64,000 nt of DNA from the NCBI GenBank assembly GCA_963718055.1, contig CAVQXZ010000001.1, forward strand, positions 1,171,605 to 1,235,604, read 5' to 3'. Shown piece after piece: positions 6,464 to 63,884 of the stretch. Under the pieces are notes generated by a model. That model saw only the letters and a program-made list of their open reading frames with translations, was not told the DNA's origin and did not search any database. Made by a program: the position numbers and the translations under genes. Numbering within the stretch: the stretch's first letter is position 1; every line of letters begins with the position of its first letter. This DNA is from an uncultured Holophagae bacterium (GTDB taxonomy: Bacteria; Acidobacteriota; Thermoanaerobaculia; Thermoanaerobaculales; Sulfomarinibacteraceae).

Positions 6464-8692
6464 TTGACTGCTCGACACGTGGCTCTGGTCCTGCCGCTGG
6501 TGGTCGCCCTGCCGGCCTCCGCTGCCCCGGGTGAACCGCAGCTGTCGAGGCCCCGTCAGCAGATTCCGAGGCTCGAAGCTCCGGTCCAGATCGACGGCGC
6601 ACTCGACGAGATCGCCTGGAAGCAGGCCTGGTCAACCGAGCTGCCGGTCGAGGTGAGCCCGGGCGAGAACACCCCGGCGCCGGTCCGCACCGAGGTGCTG
6701 CTCTTCCACGACGACGGCGCGCTCTACGTCGCCTTCCGCGCCTTCGACCCGGAGCCGACGGCGATCAGGGCCCATCTCGCCGACCGCGACGACGCCTGGT
6801 CCGACGACTGGGTGGGGGTCGTGCTCGACACCTTCCACGACCAGCGGCGCGACTACCTGCTGCTGATCAACCCGCTCGGCGTCCAGATGGATAACATCGA
6901 GACCTGGCCGGGCGAGGGTACGACCTGGGACGGGATCTGGGAGTCGGCCGCCGCCGTCCACAGCTGGGGGTGGGCCGCCGAGATGCGGATCCCGTTCTCG
7001 ACCTTGAGGTTTCAACGGACCGACGGCCCGCAGGTGTGGGGCTTCGATGCGGTCCGCGGCTACCCGCGAAGCACCACCGCGCAGATGGGCGCCTTCCCAC
7101 GCGACCGGAACAACAACTGCTATCTCTGCCAGGCGATCAAGATCGAGGGCTTCGCCGGCGTCTCCCCTGGGCGCAACCTGGAGATCGTCCCGACCATGGT
7201 CGCAACCCGCACCGACGCGCTGGCCGAAGACGACACGAAGGTCCTCGCCGAGGGCGACATCATGAGCGAGCTCGGCATCACGGCGCGCTGGGGCTTCACC
7301 CCCAACCTGACGCTGAGCAGCACCGTCCAGCCGGACTACTCGCAGGTCGAGGCCGACGCCCTCCAGCTCGAGGTCAACCAGCCGTTCGCGCTGTTCTTCC
7401 CCGAGAAGCGGCCGTTCTTCATGGAGGGAGCGGACTTCTTCGACACCAGCCTGGATGTGGTCTACACGCGCATGCTCCGCGACCCGGCCTGGGGCGCCAA
7501 GATCACCGGCAAGGAAGGGGCGCACACGGTCGGGACCTACGTCGTCGAGGACGAGGTCACCAACCTGGTCTTTCCCGGCAGCCGGTACTCGGACGCGACC
7601 TCGCTCGAGTCCGGCAACCTGGCCAGCGTCGCGCGCTACAAGTTTGATCTCGACGACCGCTTCACCTTCGGCGTGCTCGGCACCTCCAGGGAGGGCGAGG
7701 ACGGCTACTTCAACCGCGTCGCCGGCCTCGACGCCGACCTCCGCCTGTCCCCGCGCGATCGGTTGCTGCTCCAGGCGATGGGCGCGCGCACCCGCTACCC
7801 CGAGGGCATCGTCGAGGACTTCGACCAGCCCGAGGGCTCCTTCGAGGGGGCAGCGTACAACGCCGAGTACTACCACGAGACGCGAAGCTGGATGCTATGG
7901 TCGGCCCTGCGCGACATCGACGACGGCTTCCGCGCCGACCTCGGCTTCATGCCCCAGGTCGACCAGCGGTTCGGCGAGGTCGGCGCCGGCCTGCTGTGGA
8001 CCGGCGAGCCCGGCGACTGGTACTCGCGGACCGAGCTGCTCTGGAAGGTCAACCACAGCGAAGACCATCAGGGTGACCTGCTGCTCGACGAGTACGTGGT
8101 GAAGTTCAACTACGAGGGGCCGCTGCAGTCGCACGCCTTCCTCCGCCCGAGACACGTGCGGGAGGGTTGGGCCGGCGAGGAGTACGAGTACGACGAGATC
8201 TACGCCCACCTCTGCCTCCATCCCAACGGCAGCAGCCAGGCCTGGCTCGAGGTGATCGCCGGCGGCCGGCTCGACTACGCCGGCAGCCGCGAGGGCGAGC
8301 GGCTGCAGCTCCACCCGGGGTTCTGGTACCGCCTCGGACGCCACCTGCGCCTCGAGCTCGACTACACGGCCGAGCAGATGGACGTCGACGCCGGCTGGCT
8401 CTATGACGCCCGCATCGGCCAGCTCGGGGTTGCCTGGCAGTTTGACTCCCGCACCTTCGTGCGCGCGATCCTGCAGAACGTCGACTACGAGTTCAACACC
8501 GCCGTCGACCTTGCAGGACGGGAGCCGGAGTACCAGCACCTCTTCAGCCAGCTGCTGTTCTCCTACAAGCTCAATCCGCAGACCGTGCTGTTCCTGGGCT
8601 ACTCCGACAACGCCATCGGCGACGCCACGACCGACCTCACCCGCCAGGACCGAACGCTGTTCGTCAAGGTCGGCTACGCCTTCGTGCTCTAG
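6464..8692 (+). CDS. secreted CBM9-like / DUF5916 family protein
   Basis: GGAGGGA lies 6 nt before TTG 6464, followed by the signal peptide LTARHVALVLPLVVALPASAAPG. IDGALDEIAWKQA...LYVAFRAFDPEP...DDWVGVVLDTFHD is CBM9/DUF5916-like, followed by a long beta-rich region. Confidence 0.7.
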   Translation: MTARHVALVLPLVVALPASAAPGEPQLSRPRQQIPRLEAPVQIDGALDEIAWKQAWSTELPVEVSPGENTPAPVRTEVLLFHDDGALYVAFRAFDPEPTAIRAHLADRDDAWSDDWVGVVLDTFHDQRRDYLLLINPLGVQMDNIETWPGEGTTWDGIWESAAAVHSWGWAAEMRIPFSTLRFQRTDGPQVWGFDAVRGYPRSTTAQMGAFPRDRNNNCYLCQAIKIEGFAGVSPGRNLEIVPTMVATRTDALAEDDTKVLAEGDIMSELGITARWGFTPNLTLSSTVQPDYSQVEADALQLEVNQPFALFFPEKRPFFMEGADFFDTSLDVVYTRMLRDPAWGAKITGKEGAHTVGTYVVEDEVTNLVFPGSRYSDATSLESGNLASVARYKFDLDDRFTFGVLGTSREGEDGYFNRVAGLDADLRLSPRDRLLLQAMGARTRYPEGIVEDFDQPEGSFEGAAYNAEYYHETRSWMLWSALRDIDDGFRADLGFMPQVDQRFGEVGAGLLWTGEPGDWYSRTELLWKVNHSEDHQGDLLLDEYVVKFNYEGPLQSHAFLRPRHVREGWAGEEYEYDEIYAHLCLHPNGSSQAWLEVIAGGRLDYAGSREGERLQLHPGFWYRLGRHLRLELDYTAEQMDVDAGWLYDARIGQLGVAWQFDSRTFVRAILQNVDYEFNTAVDLAGREPEYQHLFSQLLFSYKLNPQTVLFLGYSDNAIGDATTDLTRQDRTLFVKVGYAFVL

Positions 8693-8788
8693 GAGCGTGC
8701 GGGGCACAGGCCCCTGAGCGCACTCGTGATGTGGTGGCCGTGGTTGGCCTCTGCCCCACACGCTCCTCGGGATGCGCTGCGCGCATCC
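8690..8788 (+). repeat. family-1 structured intergenic element, copy A (short subtype)
   Basis: TAGGAGCGTGCGGGGCA...TGCCCCACACGCTCC forms a long inverted repeat, followed by the hairpin GGATGCGC-TGC-GCGCATCC. The leading TAG is the stop codon of the 6464..8692 gene. Confidence 0.8.
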
Positions 8789-25839: not shown

Positions 25840-26107
25840 CTGCTTTGCCGCTGCCGTCTACCTCAGGCTGCGCACACGGGATGAGGCTGCGCCCCTCTTG
25901 TGTATCTTATCAGGAGATACGGAAAGCGTGGGACTCACCTCTCGGGCGGCGCCTTCACAAATCAGGGGCGCACGAACGCCGTGAATCAGGGTTGTGAACC
26001 CCAGCAAATTGTGGCATGAACGCGATGCGCTAAGTGACCAGCTATTACTCACGCCGATTCTGACTGATAATATGGACTCGGCAGCGATTCTCGCTAGGGA
26101 GTTCCCG

Positions 26108-27034
26108 ATGGCTGAAAGAAGGCAAAAGACGTACCCTCGCATAGCGCTATCAACACTTGGAGCATCAGATCAAGCAATTCGTGAGCACTATGATGTGGGT
26201 AACGAGTTCTTTCAACTTTGGCTTGATGAAACCATGACCTACTCTGCCGCAATGTGGAAGGATACCCCCGCTTCTCTGGCGGACGCACAGACACGGAAAC
26301 GCGCGTACCTTATTCGGTTGGCTCGCGCCGCAGGGCGCGAGAGGGTGCTTGACGTGGGGTGCGGCTGGGGCTCATGCCTCGATGACCTCATCAGTCACTA
26401 TGGGGTGGGGCATGCGGTGGGCCTCACTTTGAGTCCAGCTCAGGTGGAGTGGATTGAAAGCAGAAAGCTCCCCCGTGTAGAAGTGCGTCGTGAGAGTTGG
26501 GAAGACCACGAAGCAACTGTTCCTTACGATTCGATAATCTCGATAGGGGCCTTTGAGCACTTTGTGAGACCTGAGCACACAAGCGACGAGCGGATTTCCG
26601 TCTACCGAGAGTTCTTCAGCAAATGCCACTCCATGTTGAGACCCGGTGGTTGGTTGGCTATCCAAACACAGGCCTACATGCTAGGTGGGTACTGTGCCGG
26701 TAGTCCGCTCTCGGCTGTCTTTCCCGAATCTGACATGCCGAGACTCTCGGAAATCGCGGCTGGTTTTGATCACCTCTTTGAGTTGGAGTCTCTTACAAAC
26801 GACCCGCAGGATTACTACAAGACTCTTGAAGCATGGGTCGCGAGATTTCATGAGAATCGAGATCGGATCATTGCCGTCTCGAGCCAGAGTCTCTACGAGA
26901 AATTCTCACGGTTCTTGAAAGGTGGCCTCAAGGGGTACGCGAGTCAAGTTTTCATGCTCTTGCGGTTCTCCCTGAGGCGAGTCGATTCTTGTTACCCGGG
27001 ACGCAGCTCCGGAGCGGGTATCGGCACGGTTTGA
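26108..27034 (+). CDS. cyclopropane-fatty-acyl-phospholipid synthase family SAM methyltransferase
   Basis: HYDVGNEFFQLWLDETMTYSAAMW...AQTRKRAYL...VLDVGCGWGS...ISIGAFEHF is the CMAS (CFA/mycolic acid synthase) family pattern. GGGAG RBS before ATG 26108. Confidence 0.8.
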   Translation: MAERRQKTYPRIALSTLGASDQAIREHYDVGNEFFQLWLDETMTYSAAMWKDTPASLADAQTRKRAYLIRLARAAGRERVLDVGCGWGSCLDDLISHYGVGHAVGLTLSPAQVEWIESRKLPRVEVRRESWEDHEATVPYDSIISIGAFEHFVRPEHTSDERISVYREFFSKCHSMLRPGGWLAIQTQAYMLGGYCAGSPLSAVFPESDMPRLSEIAAGFDHLFELESLTNDPQDYYKTLEAWVARFHENRDRIIAVSSQSLYEKFSRFLKGGLKGYASQVFMLLRFSLRRVDSCYPGRSSGAGIGTV

Positions 27035-27158
27035 ACACTGCGGAGTGCTGGCATGGTTCGAACAGATGGGTAAGAGGTGATTCTGCTGACTCGTGATTTC
27101 ACACGAACTTGCGTGGACGCGCGCGGTGGAGTCATAAGATTGGAATCAAGGCGACGAG

Positions 27159-37381: not shown

Positions 37382-38188
37382 GTGGCGAGAGCGCTTCGCG
37401 TGGTGTGGCTCGCTCTCCTGGTGGTATCGGTCGGGAGCGCGCAGGAGCTCTACGTGCCGGCGGCTGCGCACACGAGCGGCGCCGGCGGCACGGTGTGGCG
37501 CACCGACCTCGAGGTCAAGGCGCGGGGGGGCGAGCCGGCCTCGTTCACCGTCGAGCTGCTCGAGGAGCGAACTGCCAACCCCGATCCGCTCTCGGCGACC
37601 TTCTCGCTGGCGGCGGGCGAGAGCACCCGCTTGGTCGACGTGGTCGACACGGCATTTGGCTTCTATGGCAGCGGCGCGCTCCGGCTGACCGCAAACGAGG
37701 GAGCGATCCTGGCGACCTCGAGGACCTACAACACCAACCCGAACGGGACCTTCGGCCAGTACATCCCGGCGTTCGAGGCCGAGACGGCGGCCGAGCACGG
37801 TCGCGACTACGTGCTCCTGCAGCTCTCGAGCTCGGAGTCGTACCGCACGAACGTCGGCTTCGTGAACACGACCGGCGAGTCGCTTGCGCTCGAGGTCGAC
37901 CTGTTCACCTCCTCCGCCGTCCTGCTCGGCTCGGTTCCGGCCACGCTGCGCCCGTATGAGATGCGCCAGATCCCGGCGGTGTTCACGCAAGTGACTAGCG
38001 AGTCGGTCGAGGACGGCTATGCCGTCGTCCGGACCACGACCGAGGCCGGCCGGTTCTTCGCCTACGCCTCGGTAGTCGACAACCTCTCGGGCGACGCGAT
38101 CTTCATCCCGGCCCAGCTCGACGGACCACTCGCGGCCCCGCCCGAGCCTCGCTTCGTCGTCTTCGAGGCGTTCATGCGCCCCGGGTGA
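37382..38188 (+). CDS. secreted beta-rich domain protein, conventional ORF terminated by TGA 38186-38188; possibly only the N-terminal part of a longer readthrough product
   Basis: GGAGGGAGG RBS before GTG 37382. Signal peptide MARALRVVWLALLVVSVGSAQE. The ORF ends ...RFVVFEAFMRPG-TGA, in the middle of a thioredoxin-fold strand-loop. Confidence 0.65.
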   Translation: MARALRVVWLALLVVSVGSAQELYVPAAAHTSGAGGTVWRTDLEVKARGGEPASFTVELLEERTANPDPLSATFSLAAGESTRLVDVVDTAFGFYGSGALRLTANEGAILATSRTYNTNPNGTFGQYIPAFEAETAAEHGRDYVLLQLSSSESYRTNVGFVNTTGESLALEVDLFTSSAVLLGSVPATLRPYEMRQIPAVFTQVTSESVEDGYAVVRTTTEAGRFFAYASVVDNLSGDAIFIPAQLDGPLAAPPEPRFVVFEAFMRPG

Positions 38189-38193
38189 CCGAT

Positions 38194-38231
38194 CTGCGCG
38201 GCCGCCGGTCCGGTGGTCGACCAGCTCGCAG
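38194..38231 (+). other. hairpin downstream of the in-frame TGA (candidate bacterial SECIS-like structure)
   Basis: Folded by eye. The outer stem is 38194-38198 (CUGCG) pairing with 38227-38231 (CGCAG). The inner stem is 38204-38210 pairing with 38219-38225, with one C.A mismatch. The apical loop is CGGUGGUC at 38211-38218, beginning 22 nt after the UGA. Confidence 0.3.
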
Positions 38232-38788
38232 GTGAGTACGCCGACGATCCCGTGGTCTTCATCGAGTACGACGTCGACAACCCTGCCGGCAACCGCGTCA
38301 GCCGCTGGTGGGCGGCCTGGGGGAGCGGGGGCTCGGTCTACCTGCCGCTGATCATGGTCGACAGCGGGAACGAGATCAGCAACGGCTCCGTCGCGTTCGC
38401 CCAGCGCTACCGGGCGATGGTTGACGCGGCCCTGCAGCGGCCTGCGGCGGCACGGCTCGACGTCAACCGCGAGCGGGTCGGCAACTCGTTTCGATTCGAG
38501 ATCGCGCTCACGAACCTGAGCGATGTGACGCTGAGTGCTGCCAACAGCGCGACGCTGCACGTCATCGTGTACGAGGAGGCGCACGTTGGCGACACCGACC
38601 GCTGGGTGCGGGCCGCGACGTTCCGGTCGATTTCCAACCTGGCGCCGCAAGCGACGGCGACCTTCGCGGTGGAGATCGCTCCCGCGGGCGTCGTGGACTG
38701 GGACAAGGTCCACTCCATCGTGCTCGCCGACTATCGCCCGGGCGGGGCCAGCGGCGCCTACGACACCCTGCAGGCAGCCCACCAGTAG
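38213..38788 (+). CDS. thioredoxin-fold domain plus Ig-like C-terminal domain; in frame with and probably continuous with 37382..38188
   Basis: The same reading frame as the upstream ORF. Codons 38189-38212 (PICAAAGP) are also open. PICAAAGPVVDQLAGEYADDPVVFIEYDVDN...GGSVYLPLIMVDSGNE aligns to the thioredoxin layout: CxxC helix, beta3, then the cis-Pro strand. The GTG 38213 start falls inside a helix, so it is probably artefactual. Confidence 0.5.
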   Translation: MVDQLAGEYADDPVVFIEYDVDNPAGNRVSRWWAAWGSGGSVYLPLIMVDSGNEISNGSVAFAQRYRAMVDAALQRPAAARLDVNRERVGNSFRFEIALTNLSDVTLSAANSATLHVIVYEEAHVGDTDRWVRAATFRSISNLAPQATATFAVEIAPAGVVDWDKVHSIVLADYRPGGASGAYDTLQAAHQ

Positions 38789-59613: not shown

Positions 59614-60327
59614 CTAGAGCCCGAGGTGGATGGCGACGCCGCAGGCGAAGATCGCGAGGCCGGCGAGGGCGTGCGAGTAGCGCTCCAGGCCGCGCGTCGG
59701 GAGCCGGCTGAGGCCGAAGGACAGCAGCAGCACGATCGCCAGCATGGTCAGGATGGTCGCCGCGCCGAACACCCCGGCGACCAGCGCGACGCCGAAGGCG
59801 CTCTCCGCCGCCGCGGGGTACATCAGGATCGGGATCAGGGGCTCGCACGGGCCGAACACGAAGATCGTGAACAGCACCCAGGGGGTGAGGGCCGGCGCCG
59901 CGGCACCCTGGTCATGCGGGTGGAGGTGGGCCCGCTCGTGGTCGTGCACGTGGACGTGAGTCTCCCCGCCGGAGTGGGCGTGGACGTGGCTGTGCGTGCG
60001 GTGGCGGGCCGCGCGCCGGATGCCCCACACCATGTAGACGAGCCCGAAGGCGGTGAGCAGCCAGGCCGCGACGTCGCCGCGGGTGGACTCGATCCCCTCG
60101 ACCCTGGCAACGGCGACGCCGAGGGCGATGCCGATCGTGCCGAGCACAATCGACGATCCGACGTGACCGAGGCCGCACAGCGTGGTCACCAGCACCGTGG
60201 TGGCCTTGGACCAGCCGCGGGCGCGGGCGAGGACGACGAACGGCAGGTAGTGGTCGGGGCCGAGCAGCGTGTGCCCGACGCCGATCGAGGCAGCGAGGAT
60301 GGTCAGGGCGACGAGCTCCGGTGACAT
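59614..60327 (-). CDS. His-rich-loop metal transporter, Ni/Co type (NicO/UreH-like)
   Basis: About 6 TM helices. GHTLLGPDH is an HxxxxDH-type motif in TM1. The central loop is HRTHSHVHAHSGGETHVHVHDHERAHLHPHD. Confidence 0.6.
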   Translation of the reverse strand: MSPELVALTILAASIGVGHTLLGPDHYLPFVVLARARGWSKATTVLVTTLCGLGHVGSSIVLGTIGIALGVAVARVEGIESTRGDVAAWLLTAFGLVYMVWGIRRAARHRTHSHVHAHSGGETHVHVHDHERAHLHPHDQGAAAPALTPWVLFTIFVFGPCEPLIPILMYPAAAESAFGVALVAGVFGAATILTMLAIVLLLSFGLSRLPTRGLERYSHALAGLAIFACGVAIHLGL

Positions 60328-60363
60328 TCGCTGTCCGCTCCCTTCGGCCGGCCCGTCGGCCGC

Positions 60364-60390
60364 GTATTACGAACTGAAAGTGAGTATTAC
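60364..60390. promoter_or_regulatory. direct repeat GTATTAC-N13-GTATTAC in an AT-rich patch upstream of the metal transporter (candidate operator or promoter)
   Basis: The only AT-rich stretch in the 60328-60466 leader. The two heptamers start 20 nt apart, about two helical turns. Confidence 0.25.
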
Positions 60391-60466
60391 CACAGCCGGC
60401 GCCGGCTCGTCACGTCGCACTGCGTCATAGGGTGCCGGCGACCGGTGCTGCGGCACGGACTCCTCC

Positions 60467-60593
60467 GGATGCGCGCAGCGCATCCTTCTCGGCGCGCGTG
60501 GGGCGTAGGCCAGCCAGCGACCGCGACACCTCACGCACACTCGGAGGCCTACGACCCGCGTGCGCCGAGGGGCCTATGCCCCTCACGCTCCTA
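60467..60593 (-). repeat. family-1 element, copy F (long subtype)
   Basis: The reverse complement CTCTAGGAGCGTGAGGGGCATAGGCCCCTCGGCGCACGCG...GGATGCGCTGCGCGCATCC aligns along its whole length with copy B. Its TAG is the stop codon of 60591..61082. Confidence 0.8.
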
Positions 60594-61082
60594 GAGGTCG
60601 ATGAGCCCCGGTGTTACGGCCGGCCCCGCCTGCGACGCCTCGATCGGCGTGATGAAGGTGGCGTCAGTCCGGCTCAAGGTTCCCAGCGAGGTGGGTCCGA
60701 TCGGCTCCATCGTGGTCGTGCCGGTGATGTTCGAAGGCTCGTAGGCGTTGATGGTGTCAGGCGAGATCACGGCACCGCCGGCGGTCGATCCACAGCGCAC
60801 CTGGGTCCAGCCGCCGCGGATGATCGTGTTGCCGCAGTGCTGGCGGCCGGCGGCCTGGAAGTTGTTGAGGTAGGCGAGCACGTCGGAGCAGGACTCGCCC
60901 TCGCCGACGGTGACCTCGCACGGTCCGGTGAACCGGAAGTTGGTCAGGCAGCAGACCCCGCCCTGGCCCTGCTGAACCTGGCCTGAGATGGTCTGAGCCG
61001 AGGCCACGACGGCAGCTAGAAGGAGCACGACACCGATGCCAGCCGCTCGTCGAGACGATAGGTTCGTGATCCTGTGAAGCAT
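60591..61082 (-). CDS. small secreted Cys-rich protein of unknown function
   Basis: Signal peptide GIGVVLLLAAVVASAQ. Seven Cys lie in the first 70 mature residues. No family recognised. Confidence 0.5.
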   Translation of the reverse strand: MLHRITNLSSRRAAGIGVVLLLAAVVASAQTISGQVQQGQGGVCCLTNFRFTGPCEVTVGEGESCSDVLAYLNNFQAAGRQHCGNTIIRGGWTQVRCGSTAGGAVISPDTINAYEPSNITGTTTMEPIGPTSLGTLSRTDATFITPIEASQAGPAVTPGLIDL

Positions 61083-61220
61083 CGTCGCATCCCCCTCTCA
61101 GCTAACCGCGAGCCGTCGGGATCTCGGCCAAAAGATACCACCGCTGGCAGATGAACGCGATTGCGATCGGTAGGGAGTCCGAGCTTGCGATCGGCTCCCG
61201 GGACGACGTCCTCACGTCAA

Positions 61221-61324
61221 GGATGCGCGCAGCGCATCCATCTGAGAGCGCGCGGGGCAAGGGCCGATCGGATGGACCAGCTTCACGGCCGCGCCCCGGC
61301 CGGCCTTTGACCTGCGTGCTCTCA
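61221..61324 (-). repeat. family-1 element, copy G (divergent)
   Basis: The reverse complement reads TACTGAGAGCACGCAGG...GGCCCTTGCCCCGCGCGCTCTCAGATGGATGCGCTGCGCGCATCC. Its TGA is the cydB stop codon. Confidence 0.65.
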
Positions 61325-62350
61325 GTAGCTGTGCTCGTCGAGCCGGACCTTGCCGCGGAAGGTCCAGTAGATGATCCCGGTGTAGGCGAGCACGAAGGGC
61401 ATGCCGACCAGGGCGATGATGAGCATGATGGTCAGCGTCTTGGGGCTCGAGGCCGCGCTGAAGATGGTGACCGAGGCGGCCGGGTCGTTGCTCGCCGTCA
61501 CCAGGTTGGGGTACAGCGCGAGCCCGAACAGCAGGGTCAAGGTCGCGATCGTCACACAGCTCGAGATGAAGGCCTGGGCCGGCCGCCCCCAGTGCAGGCA
61601 GCGCGGGATGTTGGCGACGGCCAGCACGTTGACGATCACCACCACCGCCGCCAACGGCCAGCGCTCGAAGTTCGCGGTCGCCCGCGGCACCAGTGCCAGC
61701 GTGTACATCGTGGTCAGCATGTAGGCGACCAGGAAGAGGCCCCAGCTGCGCCACATCCAGTCGCGCAGCCGTGCCTGGAAGGCCCCCTCGGTCTTGAGGT
61801 AGAGGAAGAGCCCCCCGTGCATCGCGAACATGGCGACCGTCATCAGGCCGACCAGCACCGGGTATGGGCCGAGCTGATCGAGCAGGGTGCCGGTGAAGTT
61901 GCCCCGCTCGTCGAGCGGGATGCCGAGGATGGCGTTGCCGACCGCGACCCCGAACAGCAGGGTGGCGAGGGCGGAGCCGCCGAAGAAGCTCCAGTCCCAG
62001 AAGCGCCGCCAGCGCGGCCGCGAGACCTTGGATCGGAACTCCATCGACACCGCGCGGAAGATCAGCGCGAACAGCAGCAGCATGAACGCACTGTAGAAGC
62101 CGGAGAAGACCGTCGCGTAGGCCTCGGGAAAGGCCGCGAACAGTGCCCCGCCGAAGGTCACCAGCCAGACCTCGTTGCCGTCCCACAGCGGTCCGATCGA
62201 GTTCATCGCGATCCGCCGCTCGTCGTTGGTGCTGGCCACGAAGGGGTGGAGGATGCCCACGCCCAGGTCGAAGCCGTCGAGGATGGCGTAGCCGGTGAGC
62301 AGCACGCCCTCGAGCGCGAACCAGATCACGCACAGTGTGGCCCAGTCCAC
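61322..62350 (-). CDS. cydB: cytochrome bd ubiquinol oxidase subunit II
   Basis: The N-terminus W....[13 protein letters not shown] and an 8-9 TM pattern are typical of CydB. It directly follows cydA. Confidence 0.9.
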
Positions 62351-62363
62351 TCCGGACCTCCTC

Positions 62364-63884
62364 TCAGCGAGCCCCGCCGGCTCCGGTCAGCGAGCCCGAG
62401 TGATCCTGCAGCCGCGCCGCCGCCGCGAGGACGTCCGCGCGGCCCGCACCTCCGGGCGGCTCCAGCGGCTCCGGACCGTGGCGGATCTTGGAGTCCAGCA
62501 CGTACAGCCAGACCGCGAGCAGCGCGAGGTAGATGAGTCCAAAGCCGACGATCGACGCCAGAACCTGCGACGCCTCCACGGAGGGGCTGACCGCGTCGGC
62601 GGTGCGCAGGCCGAGCGACTCGTCGTAGTCGACCACTCCGTCCGGACCCACCACCACGTCGCTCTCCTCGGTCCAGCTCACCGGTGGGTGGACGATCCAT
62701 GGCTGTCGACCGACCTCGGCCGCGACCCACCCGAGCTCGTTGGCGAGCACCGGGCCGACCACCGCGAACACGAACACCCACAGCAGCCAGCGCGTCTCGA
62801 AGAGGCGCTTGCGCCAGTGCAGGAGCGCGGCCGCGACGGTGAGGAGAATGAACAGCATGCCGAGGCCGATCATGACGTGGTAGCTCGCGAAGCTGAGCAG
62901 GACCGGCGGGCGGTCGGCCAGCCGGAAGCGGTCGAGGCCCACGACCATGCGGTCGAAGTCGTCGTGCACCAGGAAGGAGAGCCCGCCGGGGATCGCCAGG
63001 TTGAAGCGGATCGTCTCGGTGGCGTCGTCGGGCAGGCCGATCAAGCTGAGGTCGGCCGGACCGGTCTGGTAGTGGGCCTCGAAGGCGGCCAGCTTGGCCG
63101 GCTGGTAGCGGTAGACGCCTCGCGCCTGGAAGTGGCCCGAGACGACCGCGGCCAGCGAGGCCAGGGTCGCGAACAGCAGCGCGCCCGCGAACGACCGCTT
63201 GGCGAACTCGATGTGGCGGCCCCGGAGCAGGTAGTAGGCCGAGATCGACATGATGAAGAACGCGCCGAGGATGAAGGCCCCGATCCAGACGTGGACGAGC
63301 CGGTGGACGCTCGACGGGTTGAAGACCAGCGCCCAGAAGTCGACGATCTCGGCGCGCAGCACCGGCTCGCCGTCGATGATCAACGGCCGGCCGTCGCGCA
63401 GCAGCGGCACCACGTGGTGGCCGGCCGGGGTCTGCTGCCAGCTGTTGGCGACGACGATCCAGACCGAGGAGAACACCGAGCCGAGCGCCACCATGCAGGT
63501 GGAGAAGAAGTGCATCCGCGGCGAGATCCGATCCCAGCCGAAGACCAGCAGCGCCAGGAAGCCCGACTCGAGGAAGAACGCGAAGATCCCCTCGGCCGCC
63601 AACGCCGAACCGAAGACGTCGCCGACGAAGCGGGAGTAGGTGGCCCAGTTGGTGCCGAACTGGAACTCCATGACGATCCCGGTGGCGACGCCGATCGCGA
63701 AGTTCAGCGCGAAGATCCGGGTCCAGAAGCGGGCGGCGATCTCGAAGACCCTGTCTCCGGTCGCGAGATAGCGGCCCTCGAGAAAGACCATCACCACGCT
63801 CATCCCGATGGTCAGTGGAGGGAAGAGGTAGTGGAAGGCGATGGTCAGCGCGAACTGCAGGCGCGAGAGCAACACGACATCCAT
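62364..63884 (-). CDS. cydA: cytochrome bd ubiquinol oxidase subunit I
   Basis: [23 protein letters not shown]...[12 protein letters not shown] is the canonical CydA signature (haem b558 ligand region and Q-loop end). It carries a roughly 40-aa Gly/Ala-rich C-terminal tail. Confidence 0.95.

Follow-up and report, generated by a model that had tools for sequence, protein, structure and literature searches.

Does the TGA codon at positions 38186-38188 of a 64,000-nucleotide stretch of DNA from an uncultured Holophagae bacterium (contig CAVQXZ010000001.1; the whole stretch is called the window below) end a gene, or does it encode selenocysteine (Sec, U)? An initial annotation of the window noted that this codon takes the place of the first Cys in a thioredoxin-type CxxC motif, and proposed either a selenoprotein of the UxxC type or a gene with a nonsense mutation or a base-call error. 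Our results support the former proposal, since the TGA is conserved among orthologues, a minority of the orthologues have Cys in the same column, the downstream region is under purifying selection, and a covarying hairpin that resembles a bacterial Sec insertion sequence (SECIS) element follows the codon. We consider it highly probable that Sec, encoded by this UGA, occupies the active site of an exported thioredoxin-fold protein. Sec insertion itself is what we infer from these sequence comparisons, and the redox function is suggested by the sequences together with a structural model.

Reading frame of the gene

The gene and the codons that bear on the question are as follows.

37382-38788, plus strand: predicted complete selenoprotein gene of 468 codons, one of them Sec-UGA, running from a GTG start to a TAG stop (38786-38788)
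38186-38188, plus strand: predicted Sec codon UGA for residue 269, in the column of the nucleophilic (N-terminal) Cys of CxxC; Cys in all full-length homologues
38195-38197, plus strand: TGC, Cys272, predicted partner (resolving) Cys of UxxC; invariant in the orthologues, Ser in UxxS/CxxS relatives
38213-38215, plus strand: GTG assigned as the start of a 'second open reading frame (ORF)'; inside the 3' arm of the predicted SECIS stem, without a Shine-Dalgarno (SD)-like motif upstream

The ORF list and the translation confirmed that the two ORFs at 37382-38188 (GTG start, 268 amino acid residues) and 38213-38788 share one frame, and that the 8 codons between them (38189-38212, PICAAAGP) are open. 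The region 37382-38788 is a single reading frame whose sole interruption is the TGA (context G-(TGA)-P-I-C), and Cys orthologues of 462-478 residues, full-length, align with its product from end to end. The read-through peptide given earlier, FVVFEAFMRPG-*-PICAAAGPVVDQLAGEY, was reproduced, and the sequence across the codon reads EPRFVVFEAFMRPG-(TGA)-PICAAAGPVVDQLAGEYADDPVVFIEYDVDN. The GC content of the window is 67.8%, and that of the third codon positions is about 0.91 on either side of the TGA in this frame (0.905 downstream). Most of the other genes of the window are terminated by TGA, which means that the genetic code is standard, without reassignment.

Conservation of the TGA codon among orthologues

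To collect homologues, we used as the query the fused protein with Cys substituted for the stop, and the DNA of homologous loci was taken from species-representative genomes and metagenomes; the counts below refer to non-redundant orthologous loci. The database homologues were of two lengths. The short ones (dozens of clusters, 93% to about 47% identity) have 262-288 residues, mostly 268 or 271, and each of them stops exactly at FMRxG; the long ones (P0001, P0021-25 and P0027) have 462-478 residues with 95-100% query coverage, and each of them goes on with G-C-P-[VI]-C. All genome matches were Acidobacteriota metagenome-assembled genomes (MAGs) labelled Thermoanaerobaculia, Thermoanaerobaculales or Holophagae, the closest being 86-87% identical.

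The initial annotation had asked whether the aligned position is Cys in some homologues and TGA in others, and both forms were found in the same column. The codon is TGA in 14 and TGC or TGT in 4 of the 18 species-representative genomes; over all of the about 50 non-redundant orthologous loci, it is TGA in 44-45 and TGC or TGT in five (L002, L007, L012, L013 and L107). The TGA loci extend to about 45% protein identity and come from many samples, assemblers and species. After the TGA comes P-x-C, and the open frame is exactly 199 codons long in nearly all loci. In close pairs, the ratio of nonsynonymous to synonymous substitution rates (dN/dS) was 0.12-0.35 over these 199 codons, compared with 0.12-0.28 over 60 upstream codons; the values for the window-L091 and window-L092 pairs (>0.7) were dropped because an ungapped codon alignment is invalid at such divergence. 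The 199 codons after the TGA are under purifying selection.

In a neighbour-joining tree, the Cys forms fall into at least four separate clades nested among the Sec forms, so Sec looks ancestral for the orthologue group, with repeated replacement of Sec by Cys. The start at GTG 38213 had been called implausible, and comparison agrees with this view: the next in-frame start lies anywhere between +4 and +57 codons from the TGA, an SD-like motif precedes it in 2 of 44 orthologues, and no conserved restart codon or SD motif was found after the TGA among the 44 loci, which supports the conclusion that this GTG is not a real start. Conservation of the gene neighbourhood is confined to L003, L001 and L083, the closest relatives, and does not point to a partner gene.

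As a separate observation, in several orthologues from the 'MFD' MAGs (L016 from 10754 onward, L035 from 10737 onward, L015 and L003) the frame is lost or truncated soon after the TGA, or the neighbouring genes appear in several tblastn pieces. These losses look like assembly indel errors rather than biology.

A conserved hairpin downstream of the TGA codon

The initial annotation had drawn a hairpin with stems 38194-38198/38227-38231 and 38204-38210/38219-38225. It can be drawn, with one C.A mismatch, but it is not conserved: 57% of its cells are paired across the orthologues, one pair is never formed, and it does no better than controls. We rejected it for this lack of conservation. Folding the RNA after the TGA, which had been recommended, did give a hairpin, but a different one.

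38200-38218, plus strand: predicted bacterial SECIS core from the minimum free energy (MFE) structure and comparative analysis; 8-bp stem 38200-38207/38211-38218, apical loop GUC at 38208-38210

In the window, the core is extended by the pair C38199-G38219 and a lower stem, 38194-38196/38222-38224; the resulting fold has a 9-bp stem, CGGCCGCCG/CGGUGGUCG, with the loop GUC 19 nt after the UGA. In the ungapped alignment of the 44 Sec loci, 96.9% of the cells of the 8-bp core (columns 15-22/26-33) form pairs, compared with 25-56% for slid controls, and compensatory changes occur at pair 17-31 (GC in 21 loci, CG in 18) and at pair 15-33. When the set was extended to the 44 Sec loci, five relatives of different architecture and one paralogue, compensatory double changes were found at five of the eight pairs, a number reached by none of 500 shuffles.

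The published consensus for bacterial SECIS elements (bSECIS) has an apical loop of 3-9 nt, an upper stem of 4-16 bp, a spacing of 16-37 nt, an MFE of -7.5 kcal/mol or lower, and a G within the first two loop positions, typically as N1-G-[G|U]-N-N2 (PMC13188914). All 44 loci agree with it in every respect, having loops of the form G[G/U]N, a spacing of 19 nt and MFE values from -8.8 to -17.1 kcal/mol; the window itself has a stem of 8-9 bp, the loop GUC and a spacing of 19 nt. Position 24, in the loop, is U or G in all 44 loci. The Gly codon at positions 22-24, whose last two bases lie in the loop, is GGT in 24 loci, GGG in 19 and GGC in none, although GGC makes up 54% of all Gly codons in the genes of the 44 loci. 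That the loop Gly is never GGC despite this usage indicates a constraint at the RNA level, one that matches the G[G|U] rule.

The Cys forms vary in this region. L002 and L007 keep the hairpin; in L012 (10814) and L013 (5054) the loop Gly has become GAG (Glu) and the loop G is lost, and in L107 the stem is weakened. The decay in these three loci is consistent with relaxed RNA constraint after replacement of Sec by Cys.

With the SECIS of Escherichia coli fdhF and the bSECISearch consensus, the hairpin shares its place within the ORF directly 3' of the UGA and a small apical loop of G followed by U or G, and its spacing, stem length and MFE lie inside the consensus. It differs from the fdhF type in its minimal 3-nt loop (5 nt if the closing G-C pair opens) and in a stem without a bulged U. 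As in the window, the loop G and U of the fdhF SECIS are at positions 23 and 24 counted from the U of the UGA.

Domain organization of the predicted product

The following domains were assigned.

37382-37444, plus strand: signal peptide MARALRVVWLALLVVSVGSAQ, with a basic n-region, a hydrophobic core and an A-x-A-like SAQ
37445-38110, plus strand: N-terminal region with a tandem pair of beta-sandwich subdomains, residues about 22-129 and 143-243, from an AlphaFold2 (AF2) model
38150-38437, plus strand: thioredoxin-fold module, b1-U269xxC272-a1-b2-a2-b3-b4-a3, from the AF2 topology of P0001 with an offset of +6 residues
38450-38785, plus strand: C-terminal beta-sandwich (Ig-like) domain, AF2 P0001 strands 351-461; without a Pfam match

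The signal peptide, modelled as an isolated N-terminal helix (residues 2-15) with a low predicted local distance difference test (pLDDT) score, is common to all orthologues and to relatives with a shorter architecture, and we infer from it that the protein is exported. The AF2 model of the 268-residue N-terminal ORF of the window (pLDDT 91.5) consists of this helix and the two tandem beta-sandwiches. For the latter, the only convincing match found by Foldseek in the PDB was the functionally uncharacterised protein TM1070 (1nc7; TM-score 0.75 on the target). The same domain recurs in other Acidobacteriota proteins, fused to Kelch, BNR/Sortilin, PKD, VCBS, BACON or cellulase domains. Apart from the gene discussed here, it represents a large Pfam-less family in these MAGs (37445-38110 in the window; L018-L079), with the motifs WRTDLxVKA and YASVVDNxSGD and several paralogues per genome; one match is labelled Methylomirabilota (L066).

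For the rest of the chain, the structure was modelled for the Cys orthologue P0001 (61% identical) in place of the Sec protein of the window. The predicted structure (pLDDT 92) has an all-beta N-terminal region, a thioredoxin fold in which the Sec/Cys position lies at the N-terminal end of a1, and a C-terminal beta-sandwich; the order of elements in the fold is strand 253-259, CxxC, helix 264-279, strand 285-291, helix 299-307, strands 317-320 and 325-328, and helix 333-345. A profile of the module (A6) matched PDB thioredoxins with E values from 3.6e-5 to 1e-3, and in the alignment 'sgC-pvC' lies on 'WC-GPC', with the TGA column on the first Cys of WCGPC. This match and the P0001 topology agree with the position-by-position alignment to the thioredoxin active site in the initial annotation. 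An invariant L-P (A6 columns L70 and P71) directly before b3 contains the putative cis-Pro. The C-terminal beta-sandwich accompanies the thioredoxin-like module in all architectures. A whole-chain Foldseek search of the P0001 model against the PDB was uninformative and returned only generic beta-sandwich proteins (TM-score 0.22 or lower).

On the basis of these models, the most fitting description of the product is an exported multidomain protein of about 47 kDa whose redox centre, Sec-Pro-Ile-Cys, is of the thioredoxin type. In the mechanism that we propose, the UGA at 38186 would be decoded as Sec, with the mRNA hairpin at 38200-38218 (19 nt downstream, loop G-U-C) acting as the SECIS element that recruits SelB.GTP.Sec-tRNA(Sec) to the ribosome. 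Translation would then run on for 199 codons through the remaining thioredoxin fold and the C-terminal beta-sandwich, and the protein would leave the cytoplasm by the Sec translocon. Sec269, at the N-terminus of a1, would be the attacking nucleophile of a thiol/selenol-disulfide oxidoreductase, and Cys272 would resolve the mixed selenenylsulfide.

Indications of Sec decoding in related DNA

We also scanned the loci de novo for in-frame TGA codons with a coding signal on both sides, and two further genes are described here. In L057 (Acidobacteriota MAG184), a minus-strand gene at about 329-930 encodes an AhpC/TSA peroxiredoxin (Pfam E = 1e-38) with a TGA (plus-strand coordinate 787) at the peroxidatic Cys (FYPGDFTFV-U-ATE) and a hairpin with a GGUC loop 17 nt downstream; the raw ORF list splits this gene as well, and the MAG carries a paralogue of the N-terminal domain. 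In L091, a minus-strand thioredoxin-like gene (ORF 7767-8708, TGA at plus-strand coordinate 8450) shares its contig with the Sec orthologue, at a distance of 3.7 kb. Its product has a signal or transmembrane segment and the sequence LAEHFTNIY-U-TSC-AIAGPAV, matches the module of the window protein with 32% identity over 94 residues (BLASTP) and has no Pfam match, and the TGA is followed by the same type of hairpin (loop GUC, 19-nt spacing). The peroxiredoxin is a known type of selenoprotein, and both genes are indications that would lend indirect support to Sec decoding in related DNA. Acidobacteriota have been documented as users of Sec (PMC1794560, PMC12013277, PMC13582414), and our literature search found nothing that links Thermoanaerobaculia or Holophagae to Sec.

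Several observations weigh against the assignment of Sec. The hairpin lies within coding sequence and is kept in three of the five Cys-form loci, so that its conservation could come partly from the peptide (A-G-P/T-V/A) or from recent conversion of Sec to Cys. Its single-sequence folding energy is unexceptional (z = -1.7 to 0), and the case for a SECIS element therefore rests on comparative evidence. No relevant match to an Rfam model was found (whole window at the gathering threshold; 38100-38320 by E value). Finally, searches of the 64-kb window and of 1.67 Mb of related loci with ARAGORN (window and 60 loci), Pfam (about 40 window ORFs) and tblastn of E. coli SelA, SelB and SelD gave no selA, selB, selD or tRNA-Sec. 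The sel genes are not expected to be linked to selenoprotein genes, and their lack in the window and the loci is therefore no negative result on decoding. A marginal SelB match in L005 proved to be an EF-G-like GTPase and was rejected.

Alternative explanations

The alternative that survives best, which we nevertheless regard as improbable, is that the UGA is recoded as something other than Sec, either by hairpin-stimulated near-cognate read-through (as Trp, Cys or Arg) or as Cys by an opal suppressor resembling tRNA-Sec. Such tRNAs have been described: a tRNA-Sec-like tRNA(Cys) (selC*) occurs in several anaerobic phyla, and unusual allo-tRNAs, some of them possible nonsense suppressors, occur in Acidobacteria (Mukai et al., PMC5389517), and this explanation also gains from the outcome of the search for sel genes in the window and the 1.67 Mb of loci. 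However, selC* was not reported in Acidobacteria (PMC5389517), the position is the redox-active Cys of CxxC, which is the classical site of Sec/Cys exchange, and the hairpin agrees with the SelB-type consensus, also in its spacing and in the G[G|U] rule for the loop. The occurrence of a TGA and a similar hairpin in the peroxiredoxin of a related MAG also speaks for Sec, and if UGA meant Cys, there would be little reason for TGA instead of TGC or TGT in about 90% of the orthologues.

It is still less probable that the locus makes two products by design, namely a secreted beta-sandwich protein of 268 residues and a separate protein of 191-199 residues that starts from GTG 38213 or by termination and reinitiation. 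Gene callers do report just these two ORFs, both for the window and for over 100 database clusters, and the N-terminal domain is an autonomous fold that occurs without the thioredoxin module in many paralogues. Termination always competes with Sec insertion in bacteria, and some truncated product is therefore likely in any case. But the stop falls on the catalytic Cys column of CxxC, with b1 upstream and a1 downstream, so that neither product would hold an intact thioredoxin fold; and the Cys orthologues are single fused ORFs. Moreover, the first downstream start, at its variable distance of +4 to +57 codons, lacks an SD motif in 42 of the 44 loci and lies inside the hairpin stem in the window, and the second product would have no signal peptide, although all other architectures place the module in an exported protein.

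A nonsense mutation (TGC to TGA) or an error of base calling or assembly, and with it a pseudogene or a mis-sequenced gene, had been the other proposal of the initial annotation, and its probability is now negligible: TGC and TGA are one base apart and obvious frameshifts do occur just downstream in the related long-read MAG loci L016 and L035, but the TGA is shared by 44-45 independent non-redundant loci down to about 45% protein identity, and this together with the preserved open frame of exactly 199 codons and the downstream dN/dS of 0.12-0.35 excludes sequencing error, recent nonsense mutation and pseudogene.

Relationship to known families

Taking the UGA as a Sec codon, we compared the predicted protein with known families. 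It does not reach the Pfam gathering scores of Thioredoxin (PF00085; 12.2 bits, cut-off 23.5) or Redoxin (PF08534; 11.8-13.5 bits, cut-off 26.6), and a scan of NCBIfam release 20 at E <= 10 gave only noise-level thioredoxin and glutaredoxin equivalogs (17.6 bits or lower against cut-offs of at least 84). Neither did it match the curated NCBIfam selenoprotein models, such as NF047660 (HUIPC), NF040730 (SaoT), NF045500 (GOS_C) and NF041057 (DsbG-like). The best Pfam match is DUF1223 (PF06764), an uncharacterised thioredoxin-fold family, which aligns across the TGA over profile positions 3-145 of 202 with 16.0-19.3 bits (E = 0.0013-0.013). This is below the gathering cut-off of 30.7, and the window protein is therefore no member by the curated threshold. 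To judge from sequence, DUF1223 is probably the nearest sequence family and at best a distant relative. DUF1223 probably has a similar start as well, of the form 'strand-E-x-F-...-C-x-x-C'.

A 2026 review tabulates the known and predicted prokaryotic selenoprotein families, with many thioredoxin-fold UxxC entries, among them Sec-thioredoxin (PF00085), thiol:disulfide interchange (PF13098), DsbA-like (PF01323), Redoxin (PF08534) and thiol-disulfide isomerase-like (cd02966) proteins (PMC13188914, Table 1). The table has no entry that is DUF1223-like or has the motif of the window protein, its NCBIfam and Pfam models do not match, and DUF1223 is not among its families; our literature search also found no paper linking DUF1223 with selenoproteins. 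Our family may already be listed there under a generic entry ('Redoxin family protein', 'thiol-disulfide isomerase-like protein').

With these UxxC families the predicted protein shares Sec in place of the N-terminal Cys of CxxC at the start of a1, the existence of Cys homologues, and an in-ORF SECIS element just downstream, and several of the known families are also extracytoplasmic. It differs from them in having no significant Pfam or NCBIfam match, in the motif F-E-x-F-x-R-x-G-U-P-x-C, in the architecture (signal peptide, two TM1070-like beta-sandwiches, thioredoxin module and an obligatory C-terminal beta-sandwich), and in that Sec forms appear to outnumber Cys forms. The selenoprotein with the HUIPC motif is likewise a thioredoxin-like UxxC protein whose two middle residues are Pro and Ile, but the order is H-U-I-P-C there and G-U-P-I-C here, and its model gave no match even at E <= 10. 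Judged by the review and by these family models, the family, the architecture, the lineage and the apparent Sec dominance are apparently undescribed; the mechanism would be the standard one.

Distribution of the module in other architectures

Elsewhere, in other organisms, the thioredoxin-like module with its beta-sandwich stands directly after a signal peptide and is followed by domains of the BACON/CLIPPER type. Some of these proteins of short architecture have CxxC (for example P0111, from an Anaerolineales MAG) or CxxS. In a first search, nine clusters had ORF calls that start just past the motif, and five were examined on the DNA (L160:5974, L161:2847, L162:607, L163:2971 and L164:1733). 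All five have a TGA at the same column, reading U-G-[IL]-S or U-G-I-C, and all five have a hairpin (GCCGG-UCC-GG) at a 19-nt spacing; the GC content of their contigs is 50-60%. The UxxS and CxxS relatives suggest that the resolving Cys is dispensable and that only the first position is indispensable.

An exhaustive search with the polypeptide after the TGA against 1.84 billion representatives gave 290 clusters with E <= 1e-10 and 353 with E <= 1e-3, which puts the family at 353 or more clusters at 50% identity. In the best 150 representatives (P0121-P0267 among them), 115 ORFs are called from an M, V or L immediately past the Sec column, and 34 cover it, with CxxC in 20, CxxS in five, CxxN in one and other sequences in eight. 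Split ORFs of the former type were confirmed on the DNA in five cases, all of them with TGA, and if the 115 are Sec forms as these five were, the family would be dominated by Sec. To our knowledge, this would be unusual, most bacterial selenoprotein families being dominated by Cys forms.

In its widest form, the proposal is that at least 353 clusters constitute an exported redox family with the motif FE-x-F-x-R-x-x-[U/C]-x-x-[C/S], unrecognised as a selenoprotein family, in which Sec would be ancestral and predominant (about three quarters of the representatives), and which would comprise at least two architectures, span 50-68% GC and be systematically mis-annotated as two ORFs. We would put the chances for and against this wider proposal at about equal.

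Other features of the window

Separately from the selenoprotein gene, the window contains a low-GC island at 25900-31450 (52-60%, compared with 68% for the window) with three plus-strand genes, which may have been acquired horizontally.

25994-27034, plus strand: CMAS-type cyclopropane-fatty-acid-synthase-like methyltransferase
27159-29891, plus strand: hybrid histidine kinase
29934-31406, plus strand: PilZ/methyltransferase protein

A cluster of cytochrome bd and DsbD_2-type genes (59614-63884, minus strand) lies 21 kb from the selenoprotein gene, with no link established.

62364-63884 and 61322-62350, minus strand: genes of the two cytochrome bd oxidase subunits (I and II, respectively); a small ORF comes next
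59614-60327, minus strand: DsbD_2-type membrane protein, after the bd oxidase genes and the small ORF

Implications

The gene of the window and more than 100 similar database clusters are split into two 'hypothetical proteins', so that both the predicted catalytic residue and the domain fusion are invisible in the annotation; a hidden Markov model of the family with a Sec-aware rule would correct the annotation of many Thermoanaerobaculia and Holophagae MAGs. With 8 bp, the loop G-U/G-N and a spacing of 19 nt, the conserved hairpin is minimal and would make a compact SECIS element of natural origin. The Thermoanaerobaculia and Holophagae, abundant in metagenomes from wetland, sediment and soil, would join the lineages that are likely to use selenium. 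The apparent majority and ancestry of Sec, with its repeated loss to Cys, suggest a need for catalytic selenium in an exported protein. If the assignment is true, an extracytoplasmic family dominated by Sec would suggest that Acidobacteriota and other bacteria of sediments or wetlands carry out selenium-dependent chemistry outside the cytoplasm, and, because the UGA lies at a domain boundary, the supply of selenium could set the ratio of the truncated (beta-sandwich only) to the full-length product.

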